The notes below the pieces were generated by a model. The model was not told the DNA's origin and searched no databases. It saw only the letters and a program-made list of their open reading frames with translations. This document shows, in pieces, positions 1,623 to 64,000 of a stretch of DNA of 64,000 nucleotides (its first letter is position 1; each line of letters begins with the position of its first letter). The DNA comes from Podarcis vaucheri (Eukaryota): the NCBI GenBank assembly GCA_965113315.1, contig OZ220370.1; one strand, given 5' to 3'. Position numbers and translations under genes: made by a program.

Positions 1623-2976
1623 ATACCTTACTTCCATCCTATATTTGGGCACATTATGGCAACTAATTCACTTGTTGCTGCTGTCAAGGAAAGTAGGAGC
1701 AGGAATAGCTAGTGCAAAAATTCATGAGAATAGCTAACCATCGGATATGAAACTGAGCAATTACCGCTAAGGATGTGTGCAACATGCAGTTCACACATTA
1801 AAACTGGATCTTCCACAATGAATTCTTTGCTTGCCCTTTGACAGGCTTAGGGTTTACTGTGCTTTTCCTATAGTGCATTAACCCTAAAAATAGACAAATT
1901 ACTCAAATTTTGCATACCTATGCTTGGATGTTCAACACCCTACAGCAGCCCCATTGCTTTCAGAGACATTGATTCTCTTGTGATTGGGATCACAAGTTTG
2001 CTCATTAGAAGATATCCCTCTTCAGTTGCAATACTGTGGGTAGGGGAGAAATGTAGGGATGTCAGTTACTGTGTGAATCAGCTAGATGGCACTCTAGCAT
2101 AATAACAAGTTGCCCACTTTGCAGACCACTGGATGGAAGTTCCATGTGTACTGGGGAATGATAATTAATAACGGCATGGAACTTTACACAAGTCTTCCCC
2201 TTCCCACTCCCAGCCATTTCAGCATATTCTGGGAATGCAATTTATAATTAATGGGTTAGAGGCTGCAGCAATTTGTTCCTTCCACGGCTCCCTGAGATGC
2301 ACCACTAATCCCTACCCCAATTCAATGTTCTTTCCTATTCTCCCTGGCCTCTATGCTGTGGCCATTTGTAGTGCAGTGCATATAGCTAGAATGCATGTGG
2401 TCATCTGCTGATACTACATGGTGTCACTAGTTGATGGGGCCACTGATGGCTACTGGTGGTTTCATGAAAATGGCTTCACTCAAAATGCAGGTAATCTCCC
2501 CTCTTCCTCATGAAATATATATTTAAAAACCATTCAAGTCACTTTAGGACACAGAAGCGGGACCACAGAAGTTCTTGGACTCCTGGCCACAGATGGTTTT
2601 AGTGTTCGGCTGAGTAGCTACATCATTTAGGATATAGTGTAAGTCCCCCACCCCAACCACTCCCTTGGAACACCCACTTTTTCAGAATTTACACTGACAT
2701 AAGAATCACCCATCTTAGCTCAGCTGGCTAAGACCCAGCTACACCAGTATGTCAGACTTACACCAGCATAGCCCAGAAACTGGCAATCGATCAGATAAAC
2801 CAGAGATTCACTGGGTCCTAATTTGTTCATCCTTGCCAATCTTGGGCTTGGGTTGCTCCCTTAACTGCCAATCTCCGGCCTGCACTGTCACTATGTCAGG
2901 GATGCACATCAAAGACAGTGCATCACAACAGATAACCAACTAAACAACTTTGGCACAAGCCTATAATACCTGGAAG

Positions 2977-3391
2977 CAGGGATGGACAAATCTGAAAATT
3001 TCAGGTTCGCTCCATTTCTCATTTTTCCAGTATTTGCTTCAATTTGCCCCATTTCTGCATCTGTCAGCATTTTTTTTTAAAAAAATGAAAATACAACAGA
3101 AACATTTGTCAGCATCTTCATGCACATTTCTCCTCATATACACATTTTTATATATGCATATTTTTAAGCAAACCATTCCCCCTACTTTATGTAATTCTGT
3201 GCACTTTTCCCACTAAGATACACTTTTTAGGATGAATTTTGTAATGAACCGGATTGCAAAATTCATAGAAGGCCACATTTTGAGGGTTTGCTGCATTTAG
3301 AGCCACATATTAATTTGGGAAACGTGAATTATGTAAGTGGAGCATGCGCGTATTAAAATGGGGAATCAAATGAAATTCTAAGCTATCCCTC
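2977..3391 (+). mobile_element. Non-autonomous hAT-type element (AGGGATG termini), older copy
   Basis: Homologous to 30101-30555; termini CAGGGATG / TATCCCTC; degenerate 8-bp TSD CCTGGAAG / TGTGGAAG. Confidence 0.65.
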
Positions 3392-4468
3392 TGTGGAAGT
3401 AACAGAATTTACTTCAAGAGTAGACATGTTTATGATTGCTGTTACATACAATCATATGCAATCATCTGGAAAAGACCTCAATTGCGTAAGCAGGAAATAA
3501 TATGTTAGAAATGTGGGTGAGATTATTTAAGTCTGCTGGGTCCTTAGAGGGTGGGGGTAGGTGTTATCTTGATGACTCTTGATATATCTTCCAGCTATGA
3601 TTCCATAGCTCAATGTTTACATTTTCATCGGTTATGAGATGTGCATTTCCCTACAGACTCATATTTCGCAGAGAGGTGAAATCTGAATTCCCCTCAGAGC
3701 GTGTATTTCATTTCTGACAAATATTTCCAGAGGACCTCGAATCAGGTCCCTGTTGCAAGGCGTGCGGGAGATGAGCGTTCTGATTTTTCTCATTAGAGTG
3801 TTTTCAGACTTTGATTCTCATTATCTGCCCAGCTCTATGAAGGGGCAAGCCCTTTAAATTACTCGTTGAGTATAAATAATGCAGTAATTAGTCTCATAAA
3901 CGCGCTCAACTTCCTATAAGAAAATAATTGTTCCTTCTCCTTATCTCTTTCACTCCTTTTTTTTTTTAAGATTACCCTAATGAATCCACGATAACACCAA
4001 GCATCCTGATTCCCCTAGACTACACACTAGCAAGGAACTTTATAAAGGAAAGCAGATACTTAAATCTTTAAAGCTAGATTATATTTGCTTCTCTAATTTA
4101 GCGGAGGAGGAGGAGGCAGAGTAGCAACACCTCAAGAGCTTAAATCGAAGCACTGCCTTGTCCACCTTCTTTGTGCCATCTTTTCACTCTGATGTCCACT
4201 GCATTGAAACTGAAACGAGAGAGTAGTCATTTTCCTTGACACTTTCTTTGAGAAACGACAGCTTCTTTGAAGTGCACCCACAACCATTCTGCAACATCTG
4301 GGTAGTGTTTTTTTGTCTGTCTGTCTGTTGTTGTTCCTCCCCTGTGCTCATTAGTTCTGAAGAGCGGCTCCATCGAGCTCAGGCTGGTCCAACCTCTCAG
4401 ACCAAGTGGACCGTGAGAGTACTTTGGCACAGAACCTGAGAGCCAGGCCTGAAGGTATAGGGCTATAT

Positions 4469-7294: not shown

Positions 7295-9069
7295 GTATAG
7301 GTGTTCTTCCCTTCTTCAGGAAAGAAATATATGTGCATTTTAACTCTCTCAGAGTAAAGGTAGCGAGTATAGCCTGTAATACCCCCGACTCGGGGCAGCC
7401 TGTCCCGTTTAACCACCTTGGGATTCTGCTGCCCAAGATGGCTGCCATCAATTGACCTCATTTTTGGGGCAGCCCTGCTCTTAGCACCACCATCACCAGC
7501 TTTCAGATGCTACCTTCTTCACCTTACGAACAAAATGGTTATGGGAAAAGCAGAGATAGCATGAAGAACACATACACAAACTTGCACAATGTATTTTCTT
7601 GGCTCATTTCAATATTCAGAAGTAGTATGTTAACATACAAACTGTTCTGCTAAAACAGGTCAGAGGTCAAACATCTCTGGCCTGCAAGCCTGTTCTTCTC
7701 TACTGTCAGTCAAGATTTTCTTTCCACACTCACATGAAGTATTTGTGAATGTGTCTTTCCTTCCAAAGAATTCTGCTGTTGAAAACTGTTGGCTTTTTGT
7801 TTTTAGATAGGCTGCTCCTAACAAAGTGACATTTTTTTTAGTAATAGCCAAAAGCTGTTAATCTCCCTGCGTCCAAATGAGGGTTTGCTTTCCTTTTGTG
7901 TGTTTCCTCCTCTCCCTTCCTCTCTCTTTTTGTCTCCTTTCAGAAGCGTTAGCAAAATTTAGAAGCAGTTGAATTGGTTGACGATGCCATTCTAGTTTAA
8001 CCATAATTAAGATTAATTTTTATTTAGCAAACAGCTATGCTGTGGAAGAGTTCAGACTACTGTTTGACATCATAAATCATGATTAGGAAGCAGTGAAATG
8101 CTTACGCCTCTCCCCCCCACACACAAAAAAGAGGTTATATAAATAAAATATAAAGAAAAGCATAACACATTAATAGCTACAGCAGGTAATTAATTGTGAA
8201 ATTGCAATCCCTTTTTGGATTTAGGAATCCAAAATCTCCCCCCCCCCCCAAAAAAAAAGCATCCTGGGAACTGTGGTTTGTTACTGGTGCTAGGAACTGT
8301 ACCTCTTTGAGAGGTACAGTCCCCAGCATTCTTTTTTTTTTGGGGGGGGGTGCTTTAAATGTGTGTATGAACTCATTAACACAGTTTGTGCATCCCCCAC
8401 CCTCCTATTCCCTTGCAAAATACAAAAGTGGATAAGGAGAGAACCAGGTAATATGGAATATTGTCTCTCACTAAGAGAAGCTAGTTTTAAGCTAAACCAA
8501 ATTTTGGCATAGCCTCTCCTCTTCCCGGAGGGGAGGGGCTGTGAGCGGGAATCACTTCCTGCACTCGCAGGGTGTGTACGGCTGGGCCCCCTGCGTCAAT
8601 GGAATCCTGGGCCCGTGTCATGCACCCCAGCCAGCCAATCTGGTTGGCTGGTGGGCGTGGCTTGGCCATTTTAAAATGGCCGTGGGCCCACGAGTCCTTC
8701 CTTGTTTCCAGGCTTCCTTGGATCACCCTCCCTCTAGGTTTTGCTTCTGCACTTGACCTTGCCATGGACCTTGGTTGGTCGCCTTGGTTGCCCAAGGGGC
8801 CTAGTAGCAATTTTTTCCACTTGGCAGATAGCAGATCGTCACAGCTTTGTAAGGTCTGGCGGTTAGGCATTGGAAATGTGTTGTGTGTTGGAGGGGAGGT
8901 TGTGACCATTGCCTACCCCTCCCCTTTAAGGGTATTCCATTAAAGGAATCTGGTGGTCGTGGTTCCTGTCCGATGCCCAGGTGGTGGCTAGGGCCATGTC
9001 TTGACCCTCCGGCGACTCTAGGGGAAAGCTTCCAGCTGATTCGCATCTACAAGCTCCCCCTTGTTGGGG

Positions 9070-9286
9070 GCCTGTGTGGTGTAGTGGTTAAGAGGGGTAG
9101 GCTCGTAATCCGGTGAACTGGGTTCGTGTCTCCGCTCCTCCACATGCAGCTGCTGGTTGACCTTGGGCCAGTCACACTTCTCTGAAGTCTCTCAGCCCCA
9201 CTCACCTCACAGAGTGTTTGTTGTGGGGGAGGAAGGGAAAGGAGAATGTTAGCCGCTTTGAGACTCCTTCAGGTAGTGAAAAAGCA
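9070..9286 (+). mobile_element. Squam3-type tRNA-derived SINE (3' end in gap)
   Basis: GTGTGGTGTAGTGGTTAAGAG..CGTAATC..GGTTCG head and GGAAGGGAAAGGAGAATGTTAGCCGCTTTGAGACTCC body, near-identical to 30841-31086. Confidence 0.9.
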
Positions 9287-9419
9287 NNNNNNNNNNNNNN
9301 NNNNNNNNNNNNNNNNNNNNNNNNNNNNNNNNNNNNNNNNNNNNNNNNNNNNNNNNNNNNNNNNNNNNNNNNNNNNNNNNNNNNNNNNNNNNNNNNNNNN
9401 NNNNNNNNNNNNNNNNNNN
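9287..9419. other. Assembly gap (N run)
   Basis: Ns in sequence. Confidence 1.
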
Positions 9420-9651
9420 ACCCTTGTGTGACTCCCTGCAGAGTGGGCAGGAGTCAAGTATAGTTTGTTCTCATCCAATGCCTAAGCCAATACCTCTCAC
9501 ATTCTGTAACCAATAAAGTTGTGGCCCTTTTTAGCCCATTAACCTAAAATACTTGTGTCCATGTGTCTTATTTCATCATGAAGCAGGGAGCGGGGCCTCA
9601 ACTCACCAACATTTTAGCTGCTCCAAAGTGAAGGGAGTTCATTTACAACAA

Positions 9652-11075: not shown

Positions 11076-11202
11076 CCTTTTCTATACTAGCTATAATGCA
11101 TGAACCTGGTGCCTTCCATATGTTGTCGGACTCCAACCCCAATCAGCACCAACCAGTGTTGATAATATGAACAAAGTGTGTTCTCCCTGAAATGAGAGCA
11201 CA

Positions 11203-11979
11203 TGTTGTGGTGTGGTCTGCCAGGCCAACCCTCTGTTGCCAGGCAGGTTAAAGGGTATTGCCTGGAGCAACGATTGGATGGCCGGGTTGCTGGGGCAAAT
11301 TGCATGTTGCAATTGGGTGGGTGGGACCAAAAGCTTTAAATATTGGGTCACTCCGCTTTTGCTTTCTCTTTCGTTGAGTGCATCGGATCACCCACCCGCC
11401 CTGAGTTCCGGTTGACCTTGCTATGCCTGTCATGGGGTCGCCTGCCATTGGGGCAGGGGCCTAGTAGGAATTTTGTCCATTTGGCTGATTGGCTGGTGCC
11501 ATTCGGTTTTTGCCTACTACCTAGCAATTCATCACAACTTGTAAGGTTGCGGTTAGGCATTGGTTATAAAAATTGATGGAGGAGGGGTAAGGATAGGCTG
11601 GGCCTGCCCCTCCAATGGTGGTGTGCAAGGGAATTCTGTTAAAGGAATCCTGGGGCTTGCCATGATTTCGTCCAGTCCCTGAAATGGGACCAGGGCCTGT
11701 AAGCCTTGGGGAGCAGGTTGGGTGAGCGGTGAGGGCCTGGGACCCAGCTCAACTGCTCCCCAATATTGTTTTCCCTTCACTGGCTTCCGAGGGAGTTTGG
11801 AAAGTCAGTTCTGTCCCAGGCGGGGGAACAGGTAGTCTTAACCAATGCCTAAGCAACCACTCACTGATTATGTATTTTAATAAAGTTGTGGCCAAAATTA
11901 TGCCAAAAACCTTAAACAAAAATTATGTGTGAATTGTGAATTATTTTGAGGGGTGGCTTGGGGACCTCAACACGCAACA
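11203..11979 (+). mobile_element. LTR-like structured repeat, copy C (uninterrupted, 777 bp)
   Basis: TG..CA termini with short inverted repeat TGTTGTG / CGCAACA; TATA-like TTTAAATA at ~11335; AATAAA 11879-11884; no clear 4-6 bp TSD. Confidence 0.8.
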
Positions 11980-28099: not shown

Positions 28100-29204
28100 G
28101 GTGATGGCGATGTCCTCTGGCTCTCCAGAGGTTGCCGAACTACAAATGGGATCCTCTTTAATGAGGGCCCTGGTTGTACACGAGCCCTTGAGACAACCTC
28201 CGCCAGGTTGAAGGTGCTGGGCATGGCCCAGGCCTTGTCTATATGGCCCCACAATCACACCAGGCCATTTGAGCCAATCAGTGCAGGTGGCGTGATTGGT
28301 GGGGGCCTATAAAAGCGGCAGTGCGACGTGGCTGAGGCACTTGCTTCACGCTGCCGAATACCCACCCTCCCATCCCTATTTGTAGGTTTTGCTCCTTTGG
28401 CCTTGCTTCAGATACTGGCTGGTCGCCTGTTTTGGAACAGGGGCCAGGTAGGAATTTTTCCATTTGGCAAATTGGCAGTGGCCGCTTGGTTTTCACCTAC
28501 CACCTTAGCAATCGTTATAACTTTGTAAGGTTTGGCAGTTATGCATTGGCTTAATGAAGTGTGTGTGTGTGGGGGGGGGTGATGCGGCCATCACCTGCTC
28601 CTCCAGAAATAGGGTATTCCAGTAAAGGAATCTGGAAGTTCTGGATCTCATCTGAAGTCCGCTTGAGGGGCTAGGGCCATGCCAGGACCACAGGAGCCCC
28701 GGGGTGAGCTTTGTTGGTCTTCATCGATGTTGCTCCCTCGTTTGGTGTTTACCCTTTCAGACTAGCACCCAGAGAGGCAGGAGTTAGTTATAGTCTGCTA
28801 CCAATGTCTAAGCCAATATCACTCACTTTGCTGTAATCAATAAAGTTGTGGCCTAAATTTTGCCCATTAACTTAAACCAAAATTATGTGTCAGTGTGAAG
28901 TTACAGTCATACCTCAGATTAAATGTGCTTCAGGTTGAGCACTTTCGGGTTGCGCTCCGTGGCAACCCAGAAGTAACAGAGCATGTTACTTCTGGGTTTC
29001 GCTGCTCGCACATGCGCAGACACTCAAAATGACATCATGCGCATGCGCGGAGGCGGGAAAACGCGGCCCGTGCACACGCAGATGCACCGTCACATCTTAC
29101 GTTCCATTCAGCATGCGAATGGGGCTCCGGAACGGATCCTGTTTGCATCCCGAGGTACCACTGTATTTACTTGAGGAAGGGTTTGGGGGCCTCAGGGCGC
29201 AACT
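28100..29204 (+). mobile_element. LTR-like structured repeat, copy D (MITE inserted near 3' end)
   Basis: CCAAT 28274-28278, ATTGG 28295-28299, TATAAAA 28308-28314, U-rich loop motif 28447-28501, AATAAA 28839-28844, ends GGGCGCAAC. Left boundary approximate. Confidence 0.8.
28904..29163. mobile_element. Tc1/mariner MITE nested in copy D
   Basis: TIR CAGTCATACCTC / GAGGTACCACTG, TA TSD, related to 26022-26209. Confidence 0.88.
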
Positions 29205-30840: not shown

Positions 30841-31086
30841 GCCAGTATGGTGTAGTGGTTAAGAGCGGTAGTCTCGTAATCTGGGGAACCGGGTTTGTGT
30901 CTCCGCTCCTCCACATGCAGCTGCTGGGTGACCTTGGGCCAGTCACACTTCTTTGAAGTCTTTCAGCCCCACTCGCCTCACAGAGTGTTTGTTGTGGGGG
31001 AGGAAGGGAAAGGAGAATGTTAGCCGCTTTGAGACTCCTTAAAGGGAGTGAAAGGCGGGATATCAAATCCAAACTCTTCTTCTTCT
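30841..31086 (+). mobile_element. Squam3-type SINE, full length
   Basis: GCCAGTATGGTGTAGTGGTTAAGAGCGG head, ends AAATCCAAACTCTTCTTCTTCT; ACCCCA on both flanks. Confidence 0.92.
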
Positions 31087-57749: not shown

Positions 57750-58432
57750 CCTCAATGCAGGGAGTTTTTTCAGCCAGAACTCATTGTAGCTCAGTTCCAG
57801 CACCTCTCAGGTGGGCACCATTGCCATTAAAGAGAACAAGGGAGGCATTCATGGTGAGTTCTGGCACCTCTTTTTCTAGAACTGTAGCATTGCCTCAATC
57901 CATTTCCTTCTTCTCTCATCAATTGGCATGCCGGCCTGCCAATCCAAACCAAAACTTTTATTCCCTGCAGGTTCATGTGCGCAGCCTGCTTCTCCTTTCC
58001 AACCTCTCCTCTTTCTTATCAAATGACTGGTTTACTCGCTCTCTCACTCATAGAAGCCATACCAAGGCCTTCACAAAGAGGGAGACGTAGAATTAGCCTT
58101 GAAGTATTATTGGTTGCAGTTGGTTCACTGCTGTATTAAGTTCCTGACAAGCTGGGTTCCAGGAAATATGATCACCCTTCTGCTTCAGGGGAGCTGACTT
58201 GGGCCCCATACTGTGGGTGCCCAACAGTGGAGTGGACCACACAACGTCATCATAATGTCGCGTGACATGGCATGGCATCAATGACATCACATCTGCTGTC
58301 ATGACGGTGTGGCGCACACCAGGTGTGACAACTTGAATAAGATATTGGGGGGACAGGTAAGCCCTACCCTGTACATATAATTGATCACATGACACAGTGC
58401 ACACATACCATTTGAATGGGAAAGCCCATAAA

Positions 58433-58677
58433 GAAGAAGAAGAGTTTGGATTTGATATCCTGCTTTATCACTACCTGAAGGAGTCACAAAGCGGCTAACA
58501 TTCTCCTTTCCCTTCCTCCCCCACAACAAACACTCTGTGAGGTGAGTGGGGCTGAGAGACTTCAGAGAAATATGACTAGCCCAAGGTCACCCAGCAGCTG
58601 CATGTGGAGGAGCGGAGACGCGAATCCGGTTCACCAGATTATGAGTCCACCGCTCTTAACCACTACACCACGCTGGC
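58433..58677 (-). mobile_element. Squam3-type SINE, full length
   Basis: Reverse complement of 30841-31086; CATAAA on both flanks. Confidence 0.92.
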
Positions 58678-59477
58678 CATAAACTCTATGGGGGCCCAGC
58701 CCTCTCAAATATTTAATTGTGGGGAGTTGAAGCTCCCACAGCCCTTAGGAATTGGCTCCTATAGCACACATGCTCTGGCACTGTGACGCCGACTAATCTG
58801 GGGCCTCTGTCTCCATGCACAGGAGGAGGAGGTGGGTGGCAGCAAAGGCAGGGGGCAGATGCCCGGCACCTGCAGCAAAACTTATGTGGGTACCCAGGGC
58901 CCTCTGGAGAGGGTGCCAGTGTTCTGCTTGCTGCCATAGCTGGATACAAGATGGTCAAACTAGCCATCTCGTTTGAGGTCCCTGACACAGCACTTAGATG
59001 CCACCCTGACCTAAAGTAGCTTTTGCAGCACAGTTCCTCCCTTTCATTGTATTTATGCAACTGCAGCCACAGTCTTTGCCAAATATGCTCTTGCATTTAT
59101 GTTAAGGAGGTGTTAGTAAAAACTGAATTAATACCCACTTCAGAAATGACTATGAACAAAAGTTATTTTGCAATTCAGCTTTCCCCAGCCTGGATAGCAA
59201 CTCCAGTTTGGCAACTCCAGCTTTCCCCAGTTTTGGAATGGCAACTCCTGTCAGCACCAAATAGCATGTCTAATGGCCAAGAGAGGTTGGAACTGCAGTC
59301 TGATATCCAATCCTCTGGAGGACAGACTTCATATAAACACTGTAATCCTATACCGACCTGAGTAGGCATGTATAGGATAGCTCCATGAAGCATTTGATCA
59401 GCTTATAAGATGCATAACAATCAATCTCTGGGAGATAGTATTAAGCACTTGATCAGTTTATTGAGTTTACTGGACAA

Positions 59478-60807: not shown

Positions 60808-61112
60808 GTGTGTAGGGCAGAGTTTGTAGGGCATCAGTTGAAGAAGGAGCAAAAAGGGTTTTCTTGTGTCTGTGTGTTTCTTTGAGGCTGATTAGCTGTT
60901 TTCCCTGTGTAAAGGTCAGAGGGGGCAGGGTTTCTGTTGAGGCAGGGGATTAGCTGTGGGAGGAGCTTATCAGAGTTTGTAGGGCATCAGTTGAAGAAGG
61001 AGCAAAAATCCATCTTTTAGATTTAGGGGAGCTAGTCTCAAACGTTTGTTGAGGGAGATCTAGGTGTTTTTTTTGTGTGAAGGAAGTTATTTGTCCTGTC
61101 TTCAAGCTTTTT

Positions 61113-62177
61113 ATGATGGAGGAGCTCTGTAGCCAACCCCAACGACACGATCTCAAGATGGAAGGGGAGGGAACAGCTGCAGTCGCCTGCAATTCCTGCG
61201 CAATGTTTGCCATCTTGCCAAAGGTTGCAGGCAGCTTTACCTGCAGCAATTGCATGTTGATTGCCCTCTTAAAAGACAAAGTCCAGCAACTGGAGGAACG
61301 TGTAGCTACGCTCCAAAGAATTAGAGAGCTGGAGCTCTTCTTGGAAGCAACAGAGCACACCGTCTCCACCAAGGAGGAGACAGGGGACTCCCCTGAGAAG
61401 GAGTCTAGTTCACCAACACAGGAGCCAGATATATGGAGAAACGTGACTCAAAGAAGTAGGAGGCCCAGGGTTCACTTAGAAATACACAATCGCTTTGAGG
61501 TCCTCTCCCCTAGCATGGAAGACGAAGAGCAGACTCCATTTGAGGATCTCTCCCTCATTACAGTCGATCAGGTATATGAAGACGAGCAGCAAAGTCAGTC
61601 CTCAGGGAATGTGCAGGCGACCTTGGAACGGACAGCTCACGGAAGAACCCCGACCAAACCCAAGAGGAGGCGTGTAGTGGTGATAGGGGATTCCCTACTG
61701 AGGGGAACAGAAGCAGTGATCTGTGGGCCTGACAAGATGTCTCGGGAAGTGTGCTGTCTCCCCGGGGCTAAGATCCAAGATGTAACTGAACGACTGCAAG
61801 GAATCATAAAACCCACTGACAAATACCCCTTCCTCTTGGTTCATGTGGGAACCAACGACACTGCAAGCAATAGCCTCCAGAAGATCAAAAGAGACTACGA
61901 GGCTCTCGGCAGGAAATTGAAGCAACTAAATGCACAAATTGTCATCTCATCTGTCCTCCCAGTTGAACGACGTGGCCCAGGGAGAGAGGGGAAAATAGTG
62001 GAAGTGAACAGCTGGCTTCGCAAATGGTGTAAACAGGAACGGTTTGGATTCTTAGATCACGGACTGCAGTTTCTTGAAGATGGACTTCTGGCAAGTGATG
62101 GGCTGCATCTCACAACGGTTGGGAGAAATGTTTTTGCAAAAAATCTCAGAAACCTCATCAGGAGGGCTTTAAACTGA
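61113..62177 (+). CDS. CR1 ORF1 protein (C4 Zn finger, coiled coil, SGNH/GDSL esterase-like domain)
   Basis: CNSC..CSNC, heptad LLKDKVQQLEERVATL, NRFEVL, VVVIGDSLLR, LPGA, VHVGTND, DGLHL, ends RALN*. First ATG 61113 (alternative 61158); track start 61077 is GTG. Confidence 0.93.
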   Translation: MMEELCSQPQRHDLKMEGEGTAAVACNSCAMFAILPKVAGSFTCSNCMLIALLKDKVQQLEERVATLQRIRELELFLEATEHTVSTKEETGDSPEKESSSPTQEPDIWRNVTQRSRRPRVHLEIHNRFEVLSPSMEDEEQTPFEDLSLITVDQVYEDEQQSQSSGNVQATLERTAHGRTPTKPKRRRVVVIGDSLLRGTEAVICGPDKMSREVCCLPGAKIQDVTERLQGIIKPTDKYPFLLVHVGTNDTASNSLQKIKRDYEALGRKLKQLNAQIVISSVLPVERRGPGREGKIVEVNSWLRKWCKQERFGFLDHGLQFLEDGLLASDGLHLTTVGRNVFAKNLRNLIRRALN

Positions 62178-64000
62178 CTAATGTGGGGGAGGGAGACAGT
62201 GCTCCTGAAGGTAGGAGTCTATCAATAAATGAAGATGATCATCCAAATGTCATAGACCAAATGGAGCAAACAGCACGCGGACCTAGTGGTGGGAGGAAAA
62301 AATCCTTAAATAAGAGACACGGGGGAATGATTAATGGACTTCAATGTCTGTACACTAATGCGCAAAGCATGGGAAATAAACAAGATGAGCTTGAGCTCTT
62401 GGTACAGCAAACTAAATATGACATAATAGGCATCACTGAAACCTGGTGGGATAAGCCCCACGATTGGAATGTAATAATGGGGGGATACAATCTATTTCAG
62501 AGAAACAGACCAGACAAGAAAGGAGGAGGAGTGGCGTTATATGTCAGGGATGTGTATACCTGTGAAGAGATCCAAGATTTAGATCCTCAAAGCCAAAGTG
62601 AGAGCATTTGGGTCAAAATTAAGGGAGAGAAGAATAACAGAGACCTCATTGTGGGAGTTTACTATAGATCCCCAAGCCAAACGGAGGACATAGATGATGC
62701 CTTCCTGGAACAGATGGCCAAGCATGCAAAAGGAAGGGAGATAGTAGTAATGGGGGACTTCAATTACCCAGATATTTGTTGGACGTCAAACTCAGCCAAG
62801 AGCATAAGGTCAAACAGATTCCTCACTGGCCTTGCAGACAACTTCATTGTCCAGAAAGTGGGAGAAGCAACAAGAGGAACAGCCATTTTAGATCTGGTCC
62901 TAACCAATGTTGATGACCTGGTTAGTGGGGTAGAAGTGGAAGGATCATTAGGCGCGAGTGATCATGCTCTTCTGAAGTTTACTATACAGCGGAAAGGAGC
63001 AGCCAAGCATACTAGGACTCAATTTCTTGACTTTAAGAAAGCCGACTTCATAAAACTTAGGGAAGTGCTGGGTGAGATCCCATGGACAACAATACTAAAA
63101 GGAAAGGGAGTTCATGATGGCTGGGAGTTTGTTAAGAGGGAGATACTAAAAGCACAACGTCAGGCAATACCAATGAGACGGAAACATGGAAGGTGCCTAA
63201 AGAAGCCAGGGTGGCTATCTAAAGAACTTTTAACTGAATTAAGATTAAAAAAGGATGTGTACAAAAAATGGAAAAGGGGGGAAACCACCAAAGAGGAATT
63301 CAAACAAATAGCCAGCACGTGTAGACACAAAGTCAGAAAAGCTAAAGCACAGAATGAACTCAGGCTTGCTAGAGAGGTTAAAAGCAACAAAAAAGGCTTT
63401 TATGGGTATGTTCGTAGCAAAAGGAAGAACAAAGAAACAATGGGGTCACTCAGAGGAGAAGATGGTGAAATGCAAACAGGGGACACAGAAAGGGCTGAAC
63501 TACTCAATGCCTTCTTTGCCTCAGTCTTCTCCGATAAAGAAAACAATGCCCGACCTGAAGAATTTGGAGCAAATGATTCAGCAAAGGAAACACAGCCCAG
63601 AATAACTAAGGAGATAGTACAAGAATATTTGGCTAGTTTAGATGTATTCAAGTCTCCAGGGCCAGATGAACTGCATCCAAGAGTATTAAAAGAACTGGCA
63701 GATGTGATCTCAGAACCACTGGCAGTCATCTTTGAGAATTCCTGGAGAACAGGCGAAGTCCCGGCAGACTGGAGGAGGGCAAATGTTGTCCCTATTTTCA
63801 AAAAGGGGAAAAGAGAGGACCCAAATAATTACCGCCCAGTCAGTCTGACATCAATAGCAGGGAAGATTCTGGAGCAGATCATTAAGCAAACAGTCTGTGA
63901 GCACCTAGAAAGGAATGCTATGATCACCAATAGTCAGCATGGATTTCTGAAAAATAAGTCATGTCAGACTAACCTGATCTCGTTTTTTGACAGAATTACA
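62168..64000 (+). CDS. CR1 ORF2 (APE endonuclease plus N-terminal RT region), partial
   Basis: Absent from the ORF track because it has no stop in the window. Hand translation: CLYTNAQSMGNKQDEL, IIGITETWWD, GGGVALYV, VGVYYRSP, VMGDFNYPDICW, LDLVL, SDH, KSPGPDELHPRVLKEL, WRRANVVPIFKKG, NYRPVSLTS, SQHGF. Frame open from 62099; first ATG 62261. Confidence 0.93.

Follow-up and report, generated by a model that had tools for sequence, protein, structure and literature searches.

The Ngaro class of tyrosine-recombinase retrotransposons and its solo AB units are already known. For instance, the Xenopus element DIRS-53_XT has been reported with split direct repeats in the order A1-ORFs-B1-A2-B2, overlapping gag-like, reverse transcriptase/RNase H (RT/RH), tyrosine recombinase (YR) and SGNH-hydrolase ORFs, and identical repeat pairs in young copies (PMC9210276), in a main text where the terms 'solo' and 'secondary structure' have 0 occurrences. 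Isolated AB units of Ngaro elements have been described in a protist, Cafeteria burkhardae, where they were compared to solo LTRs and explained by recombination between the repeats at the 5' and 3' ends, the account given of these units mentioning no RNA structure or 3'-end signal (PMC8547959). In another superfamily with other RNA processing, the SIRE of the Trypanosoma cruzi element VIPER is presented as a dispersed unit made of A2, a short internal region and B2 of a split-repeat YR element (PMC6681497). We found no description of RNA structure in Ngaro repeats in the freely accessible literature.

We present here the analysis of a 64,000-nt stretch of the Podarcis vaucheri contig OZ220370.1 (hereafter the window), which holds four copies, all on the + strand, of a repeat with long-range internal complementarity. 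An earlier note had read one of them, copy C, as a self-contained promoter, structured RNA and poly(A) unit spanning 11203-11979. Comparison with close relatives fetched from the genome moved these ends to 11173-11977, common to 30/30 of them, and the unit is almost certainly a solo A-spacer-B relic of a Ngaro tyrosine-recombinase retrotransposon, matching the A2-spacer-B2 part of full elements and carrying the full left end of A and the right end of B with no internal ORFs. It was likely left by recombination between the two A repeats of a Ngaro element. The four window copies, which had been treated as comparable, do form one family, with the restrictions that they represent four subfamilies and are unequally complete: copy A (1-434) is the 3' part of a solo unit that begins 344 nt before the window, copy B (8509-9609) is a solo from a third subfamily into which an unrelated repeat has inserted at ~9069-9419, and copy D (28144-28904), from a fourth, is truncated at its 3' end and lacks the last ~35 nt. 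Whole-genome searches returned 2650-3857 first-look candidates per window copy, 40 of which were scored each time; for copy C, 3857 candidates were found in the 1.6-Gb genome and the 40 scored ones showed 89-94% identity. With thousands of solo candidates, TATA-like boxes, ENE-like hairpins and AATAAA hexamers are spread across the host genome, and the window unit itself is an ordinary decayed relic. Two other repeats of the window deserve mention. A ~250 bp repeat is present in three copies with 91-93% identity (9069-9419, 30841-31086 and 58432-58678), the first of which sits within the H4 region of copy B. In addition, positions 61053-64000 (+ strand) contain an open 374-aa ORF1 with a GDSL esterase match (2e-9) and, after it, a frame that stays open over >600 aa as far as the last window position and resembles endonuclease-RT by eye, an element that we take to be a CR1-like LINE.

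The C-type loci are preceded on the left by AA (26 loci) or AT (4 loci), pointing to a recombinase that prefers a 2-nt target, and their right end is CAA (30/30). A 4-8 bp duplication was found at only 2/30 of them, with nine lenient boundary choices allowed, copy C being one of the two and its 4 bp overlapping the shared AA. No Ngaro ORF was detected within the window or within 1.5 kb of the 30 C-type loci. Because ends without duplication suggested a tyrosine-recombinase element, we looked for a right end directly abutting a left end, a junction that gave 91 exact genome matches against 0 for a reversed control. The layout A1 ... B1-A2-spacer-B2 was recovered in twenty 10-kb stretches with repeat pairs 98-100% identical; both the A and B pairs are visible in 19/20 (L068 has A1/A2 but a cut B2), and several stretches contain internal deletions or insertions. 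Full elements in the genome follow the order A1-gag-RT-YR-SGNH-B1-A2-spacer-B2, so that the earlier suggestion to look for paired copies around tyrosine-recombinase ORFs proved fruitful, and split repeats (A1 ... B1-A2-B2) were also found in three divergent elements. Among the ORFs of L065, RVT_1 (4.9e-14) was the sole family above its curated cut-off, with integrase-SAM (7.5e-5), phage integrase (1.1e-3), CCCH (1e-3) and Lipase_GDSL_2 (7.7e-4) below theirs; RNase H had no separate match, no methyltransferase family appeared at E<=0.01 and no DDE integrase was matched.

These parents combine split direct repeats, gag-like, RT and YR ORFs, an SGNH hydrolase with no methyltransferase, and a short overlap at the end junction with no integrase-type target-site duplication, the assignment to Ngaro being based on the split repeats and the hydrolase. 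A DIRS-like superfamily origin, with inverted terminal repeats and an internal complementary region, was rejected, the self-matches of the element ends being direct. If the unit were instead a solo LTR with a long R region, derived from a Gypsy element or an endogenous retrovirus, the promoter-to-AATAAA layout would be accounted for, and the coordinates first proposed happen to begin with TG and end with CA. This reading is nevertheless hardly credible: the genuine termini are A(A/T)-AG.. and ..CAA, the duplication rate is that given above, and the parents have split repeats and a YR-like ORF without DDE integrase match, none of this corresponding to the TG..CA ends, 4-6 bp duplication, paired LTRs and DDE integrase of an ERV/Gypsy solo LTR.

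The parents studied are sister subfamilies with ~70-85% identity to copy C, since an intact parent was found for none of the four subfamilies in the window. Junction patterns of the A- and B-type subfamilies gave 0 genome matches, the D-type pattern gave 1 match with a B1 of only 61 nt, and 0 C-type parents were found among the 30 fetched of the 91 junction loci. Two B copies were required for inclusion, and 40/120 loci were without them. In 36/40 loci (e.g. L143, L147), the hydrolase ORF has a single B after it and lacks an A2, an arrangement that B1xB2 recombination would yield and that makes these loci a second class of product. At L284:6869-8935, a tandem extra A-spacer-B unit, with three B copies of 99.5-99.8% identity, is consistent with unequal recombination between repeats. 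Most young junction-bearing elements (L062-L080) have imperfect repeats arrayed in tandem in gag (oriented ~2700-3600) and are devoid of long RT/YR frames, L065 having all four long ORFs and L068 nearly so. The B1|A2 junction (e.g. in L035) forms a short inverted repeat around AAA.

Within copy C (+ strand throughout), the A repeat, or promoter part, occupies 11173-11391 and ends in GGATCAC, as set by the A1/A2 boundary in 4 full elements, A1 and A2 being 99-100% identical in the 10-kb stretches. A TATA-like box (11335-11341), a putative promoter element on sequence grounds, lies ~50 nt 5' of the A end. The spacer (11392-11547), found in full elements only between A2 and B2, contains a predicted ENE-like hairpin with a U-rich internal loop between G-C-rich stems (11462-11519) and the 5' arm of an outer helix, P0 (11531-11540), which is hence specific to B2 and solo copies. 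The B repeat (11548-11977) has its 5' boundary at the 5' arm of a long closing stem, P1 (11545-11566), which shows U-A/C-G double changes in young lineages. P1 is followed by hairpin H1 (GGAGGGG..CCCCTCC, 11581-11613), by H2 with a conserved TAAA-containing loop and a U-A/G-C change in 9/30 rows (11630-11650), and by H3-H6, up to ~11832. Downstream of the P1 3' arm (11839-11858) come an ACTCAC segment, engaged in ORF-side pairing in B1 copies only, then a TGTA directly 5' of the AATAAA, a candidate poly(A) signal (11879-11884) invariant in a 39-row alignment, the P0 3' arm (11883-11892) and a GT-rich stretch near 11926. The distance from the TATA-like box to AATAAA is 544 nt in copy C and 531 nt in copy D. 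All the pairings described in the earlier note are present where it had placed them, with duplexes of -28.9 (C), -17.9 (B), -12.7 (A) and -14.2 kcal/mol (D), and -15.2 kcal/mol for the outer helix of copy A.

The B repeat is predicted to fold into a ~330-nt multibranch domain made of P1, H1, a junction holding H2-H4, H5 and H6. The fold of copy C between 11455 and 11900 had a z-score of -4.0, with 0/100 dinucleotide shuffles as good, while a wider stretch (11365-11920) gave -2.4 with 2/100. In young full-length elements (71 copies clustered at 96% into 18 representatives), the B core reached z -3.6 to -8.2 in 9/9 copies, every second representative being folded, against +0.5 to -1.9 for A plus spacer and -0.1 to -1.7 for the end of ORF4. 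The helices recur in the alignments of the C, A, D and B subfamilies, and the architecture recurs in lineages whose SGNH hydrolase is 49% identical. Rfam returned 0 hits for the window at gathering score and 0 for five loci at E<=1. Furthermore, the young full-length lineages display double (compensatory) changes in 9/74 pairs, a count reached by 0/500 shuffles and compared with 0-2 in slid controls, although it is inflated by the relatedness of the representatives and by structures derived from the same alignments. A second Watson-Crick type was found in 8/66 pair columns. Overall, the fold has very probably been selected in the active lineages, which upholds the earlier proposal that selection acted on RNA structure during the evolution of the family.

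The molecule on which this selection acted can be addressed by comparing strands. Complementarity could act in single-stranded cDNA, for circularisation or recombinase recognition: DIRS-1 is reported to make single-stranded cDNA (PMC7192593), antisense z-scores in young copies are as low as sense ones, and the end junction is itself an inverted repeat. By contrast, the sense MFE was below the antisense MFE in 9/9 young copies, GU pairs outnumbered AC mismatches in the young set (12 vs 3, from only 7 vs 3 columns and with pairs defined without GU), and invariant U-G pairs occur on the sense strand. The MFE difference and the GU excess weakly favour an RNA-level fold, and we regard the cDNA reading as very unlikely.

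The solo copies tell a different story from the young lineages. Private non-CpG substitutions in 83 solo copies fell equally on paired (0.0196 per site) and unpaired (0.0207 per site) positions (p=0.53), and each solo group showed 0-1 columns with a second Watson-Crick type and about as many GU as AC. Because young lineages compensate and solos do not, the fold is seen as maintained in replicating elements and decaying in solos, including copy C; because solos decay regardless of pairing, a selected stand-alone ncRNA is unlikely. On an alternative view, the solos themselves would constitute a non-autonomous element or ncRNA gene whose product is a stable structured RNA of ~0.5 kb. In its favour are the TATA-like box, ENE-like hairpin and AATAAA that solos keep in thousands of candidates, reads from such copies in RNA data, the mobility of the analogous SIRE, left open in its description (PMC6681497), and the tandem extra A-spacer-B unit at L284. 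Against it, besides the lack of stem protection and the near absence of compensatory columns, the transcript of a solo would be missing the greater part of A as well as the B end and would offer no B|A junction from which to rebuild them, and the spacer tracts stand before B1 in 0/74 loci. As for expression, four raw RNA runs from two studies yielded 110-152 and 52-107 reads matching the units, mostly partial and from both strands, out of 10.5-12.8 million reads per run (6-12% of each), in material whose species match and tissue are uncertain, the DNA runs under the same species label holding only about a third of the sequence words. Among the matches listed, reads did not accumulate at any start or end position, and none carried a poly(A) end. 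The self-contained ncRNA unit initially proposed is thus most improbable, even if individual co-opted solo copies could exist.

Other functions of a selected B domain were considered in the light of its shape and boundary. The domain may be a protein-binding platform for packaging or nuclear export, its outer helices merely insulating it. Retroviral response elements likewise have a long closing stem with a multibranch head, and the closed ~330-nt domain, with its conserved topology, divergent stems and few fixed loop bases (the H2 TAAA loop), would suit such a role, as would a gag-like ORF with a weak CCCH finger match. We consider this platform unlikely as the main function, since it would explain neither the two outer helices reaching the poly(A) region nor the B2-specific ENE-like loop. 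A second alternative is that the fold mainly serves as a reverse-transcription signal, the base of P1 marking where cDNA starts or stops and thereby setting the B boundary; variants involve fold-back self-priming at B2, or plus-strand priming at a hairpin conserved ahead of B1 (GAGC..GCTC). The beginning of B falls at (T)TGGCGG, which is the P1 5' arm, in 68/74 young loci and also in the divergent elements L270, L234 and L239; B1 and B2 show zero mismatches in 42/74 young loci; the small hairpin before B1 is present in all groups aligned; and a report on DIRS-1 gives its primer as unknown (PMC7192593). Such a signal alone explains neither the ENE-like hairpin nor a helix lying over UGUA/AAU in divergent groups (see below). 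We regard it as possible though somewhat doubtful, and it is compatible with, not exclusive of, a role in 3'-end formation.

This latter role stems from a property shared by full elements, in which the sequence upstream of B1 differs from that upstream of B2 and each of the two can pair with B. At B2, P0 (10-13 bp, predicted -11 to -14 kcal/mol) uses the spacer. Its 10/10 pairs never vary, giving no covariation evidence. The outer helix had been described as overlapping the poly(A) hexamer, which holds for a 13-bp form in A/B/D-type copies, whereas in copy C the first pair is lost and only the last two A of the hexamer are covered; in A-type solos, P0 buries five of the six hexamer bases (unpaired probability 0.00-0.09). 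Because the spacer precedes only B2, P0 cannot hide the B1 signal, and it was rejected as a device occluding the signal during read-through. The HIV-like gating of polyadenylation attributed to this helix consequently fails, P0 forming only at the copy that should be polyadenylated. Taken together, the earlier interpretation stands for selection on structure and for its pointer to YR ORFs, and falls for the self-contained ncRNA and for gating by P0.

The B1 repeat is preceded by the last SGNH codons and the small hairpin, which pair with the segment between P1 and AAUAAA. The arm first predicted on this ORF side for older subfamilies gave 0 matches, the real arm being different, and a looser pattern gave 103 matches, 29 loci of which were examined and revealed the actual arm. 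Among the ORF-side pattern matches listed, 11/100 lie on a single 41-Mb contig (C41 of G000), nearly all in divergent copies, this contig possibly being a low-recombination chromosome where old elements survive. The divergent copies were arranged in three groups (E, F and G), leaving out L242, L262, L273, L278 and L279, which have no PAS, an insertion or an altered arm; L262, the only A-type ORF-side copy, is devoid of the usual upstream arm. In 17 copies of these groups, the B1 extension of P1 is 97.8% paired. The ORF-side duplexes of the 9 copies shown range from -34 to -41 kcal/mol against shuffle means of -12 to -17, and mean energies are -34 to -38 kcal/mol within E/F/G against -11 to -18 with young-clade arms. 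In an arm-swap comparison, from which L178 was excluded because its B is deleted at the start, only 14/41 upstream arms had their best pairing within their own group. Double changes affect only 2/23 pairs of the B1 extension, whose 5' arm is also protein-coding, and the count for the whole E/F/G structure (3 pairs), reached by 178/500 shuffles, is not above chance.

The predicted accessibility of the poly(A) signal at B1 contrasts between lineages. In E/F/G, the unpaired probability at B1 is 0.00-0.02 for UGUA and 0.04-0.26 for AAU. In L270, for which both copies could be compared, AAU is unpaired at 0.01-0.11 at B1 versus 0.56-0.84 at B2, whereas in L234 and L239 a switch is not clearly apparent; the B2 values of L275, taken at wrong coordinates, were disregarded. 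The ORF-side helix of the youngest clade stops short of the poly(A) signal, and AAUAAA has in this clade the same mean unpaired probability (0.47) at B1 and B2, being higher at B1 in 10/18 representatives. A hexamer more paired in the skipped copy, as in HIV, is thus predicted for E/F/G and L270 and not for the 18 young representatives, L234 or L239. The ORF-side helix at B1 appears a better candidate than P0 for occlusion, and would bury the signal only in E/F/G. Suppression by U1 at a splice donor, of the foamy-virus type, was rejected, the donor-like hexamer before B1 being predicted paired (0.05 unpaired) and not conserved in E/F/G.

The spacer before B2 brings a second asymmetry. ENE-like U-tracts are found before B2 in 58/74 loci and before B1 in 0/74. 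The predicted hairpin is a stem-loop with a U-rich internal loop beside G-C pairs, in keeping with the secondary-structure definition of an ENE set out in PMC7583470. The pattern occurs in 18/18 young and 3/3 divergent full elements, and in 24/30 C, 14/20 A, 12/19 D and 8/15 B copies, i.e. 58/84 solo copies overall. The hairpin lies 10-11 nt 5' of P0 in most copies of every group and its lower-stem pair types vary between copies, but it is absent from some single-sequence MFE folds. With P0 and P1 formed, a tail added downstream of the AAUAAA in B2 would come to lie beside the ENE-like loop.

On these grounds, we tentatively propose, with a little less than even confidence, that the predicted fold acts as a 3'-end module favouring RNA that ends in the last B copy, B2. 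Transcription would start near the end of A1 and have to read through the identical AAUAAA of B1. There, the last SGNH codons would extend P1, and in the three divergent subfamilies would enclose UGUA, together with the 5' half of AAUAAA, within ~25 bp (-34 to -38 kcal/mol), suppressing cleavage; strengthening the HIV-1 polyA hairpin from -17.5 to -24.7 kcal/mol was reported to reduce polyadenylation (PMC2645353). At B2, only the weak P0 (10-13 bp, -11 to -14 kcal/mol) would touch the signal and cleavage would be allowed. P1 and P0 would then loop out ~330 nt and place the new poly(A) tail beside the ENE-like U-rich loop, which may slow deadenylation of genome-length RNA only, as the ENE of Evade is described to protect retrotransposon RNA (PMC12501189). 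Several observations weigh against this 3'-end module. The youngest clade has equal hexamer access at B1 and B2, yet its copies represent recent replication; L234 and L239 lack a clear switch; and P0 in A-type solos buries the hexamer, the opposite of what the model needs. Furthermore, the 10 pairs of P0 are invariant, double changes in the B1 extension are few, the swap test favoured the own group in a minority of cases and the first ORF-side pattern had no match, while antisense z-scores equal sense ones and the RNA reads revealed no transcript ends.

A more integrated version of this model is a Ngaro RNA switch, in which a ~330-nt domain starting exactly at the B boundary would take a different outer partner in each copy, the hydrolase codons hiding the poly(A) signal at B1, the spacer docking the tail on an ENE triple helix at B2, and the same stem base setting the start of reverse transcription. 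As a whole, we deem it rather unlikely. If true, it would represent the Ngaro solution to the problem of two identical 3' ends, and in any case the fold supplies concrete helices for mutation in short reporters.

Compared with the systems described so far, the lizard elements share the split-repeat layout and ORF content of DIRS-53_XT, and differ from its published description by a B repeat of ~420-440 nt versus 152 bp and by an A2-B2 spacer of ~180 nt (PMC9210276). Their solos are isolated AB units as in Cafeteria burkhardae, and, with regard to the SIRE, they decay neutrally where the mobility of the latter was left open. The HIV-1 polyA hairpin (PMC2645353) and foamy virus (PMC3694450) face, as presented in these reports, the same situation of two identical poly(A) signals distinguished by copy-unique flanks; in the Ngaro elements, by contrast, both copies lie at the 3' end, ~800 nt apart, and the helices are long-range (~330 nt), and the U1 mechanism of foamy virus (PMC3694450) does not fit, the splice-donor-like hexamer before B1 not being conserved. 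Finally, relative to the ENEs of KSHV PAN (PMC7583470) and Arabidopsis Evade (PMC12501189), the hairpin lies ~360 nt 5' of AAUAAA and would need P0/P1 to reach the tail, its U-tracts are of 3-7 nt and asymmetric, and its triplex is only putative; with the ENEs as portrayed there, it shares a U-rich internal loop flanked by G-C-containing stems and a location within the 3' non-coding portion of a retroelement RNA poor in introns.
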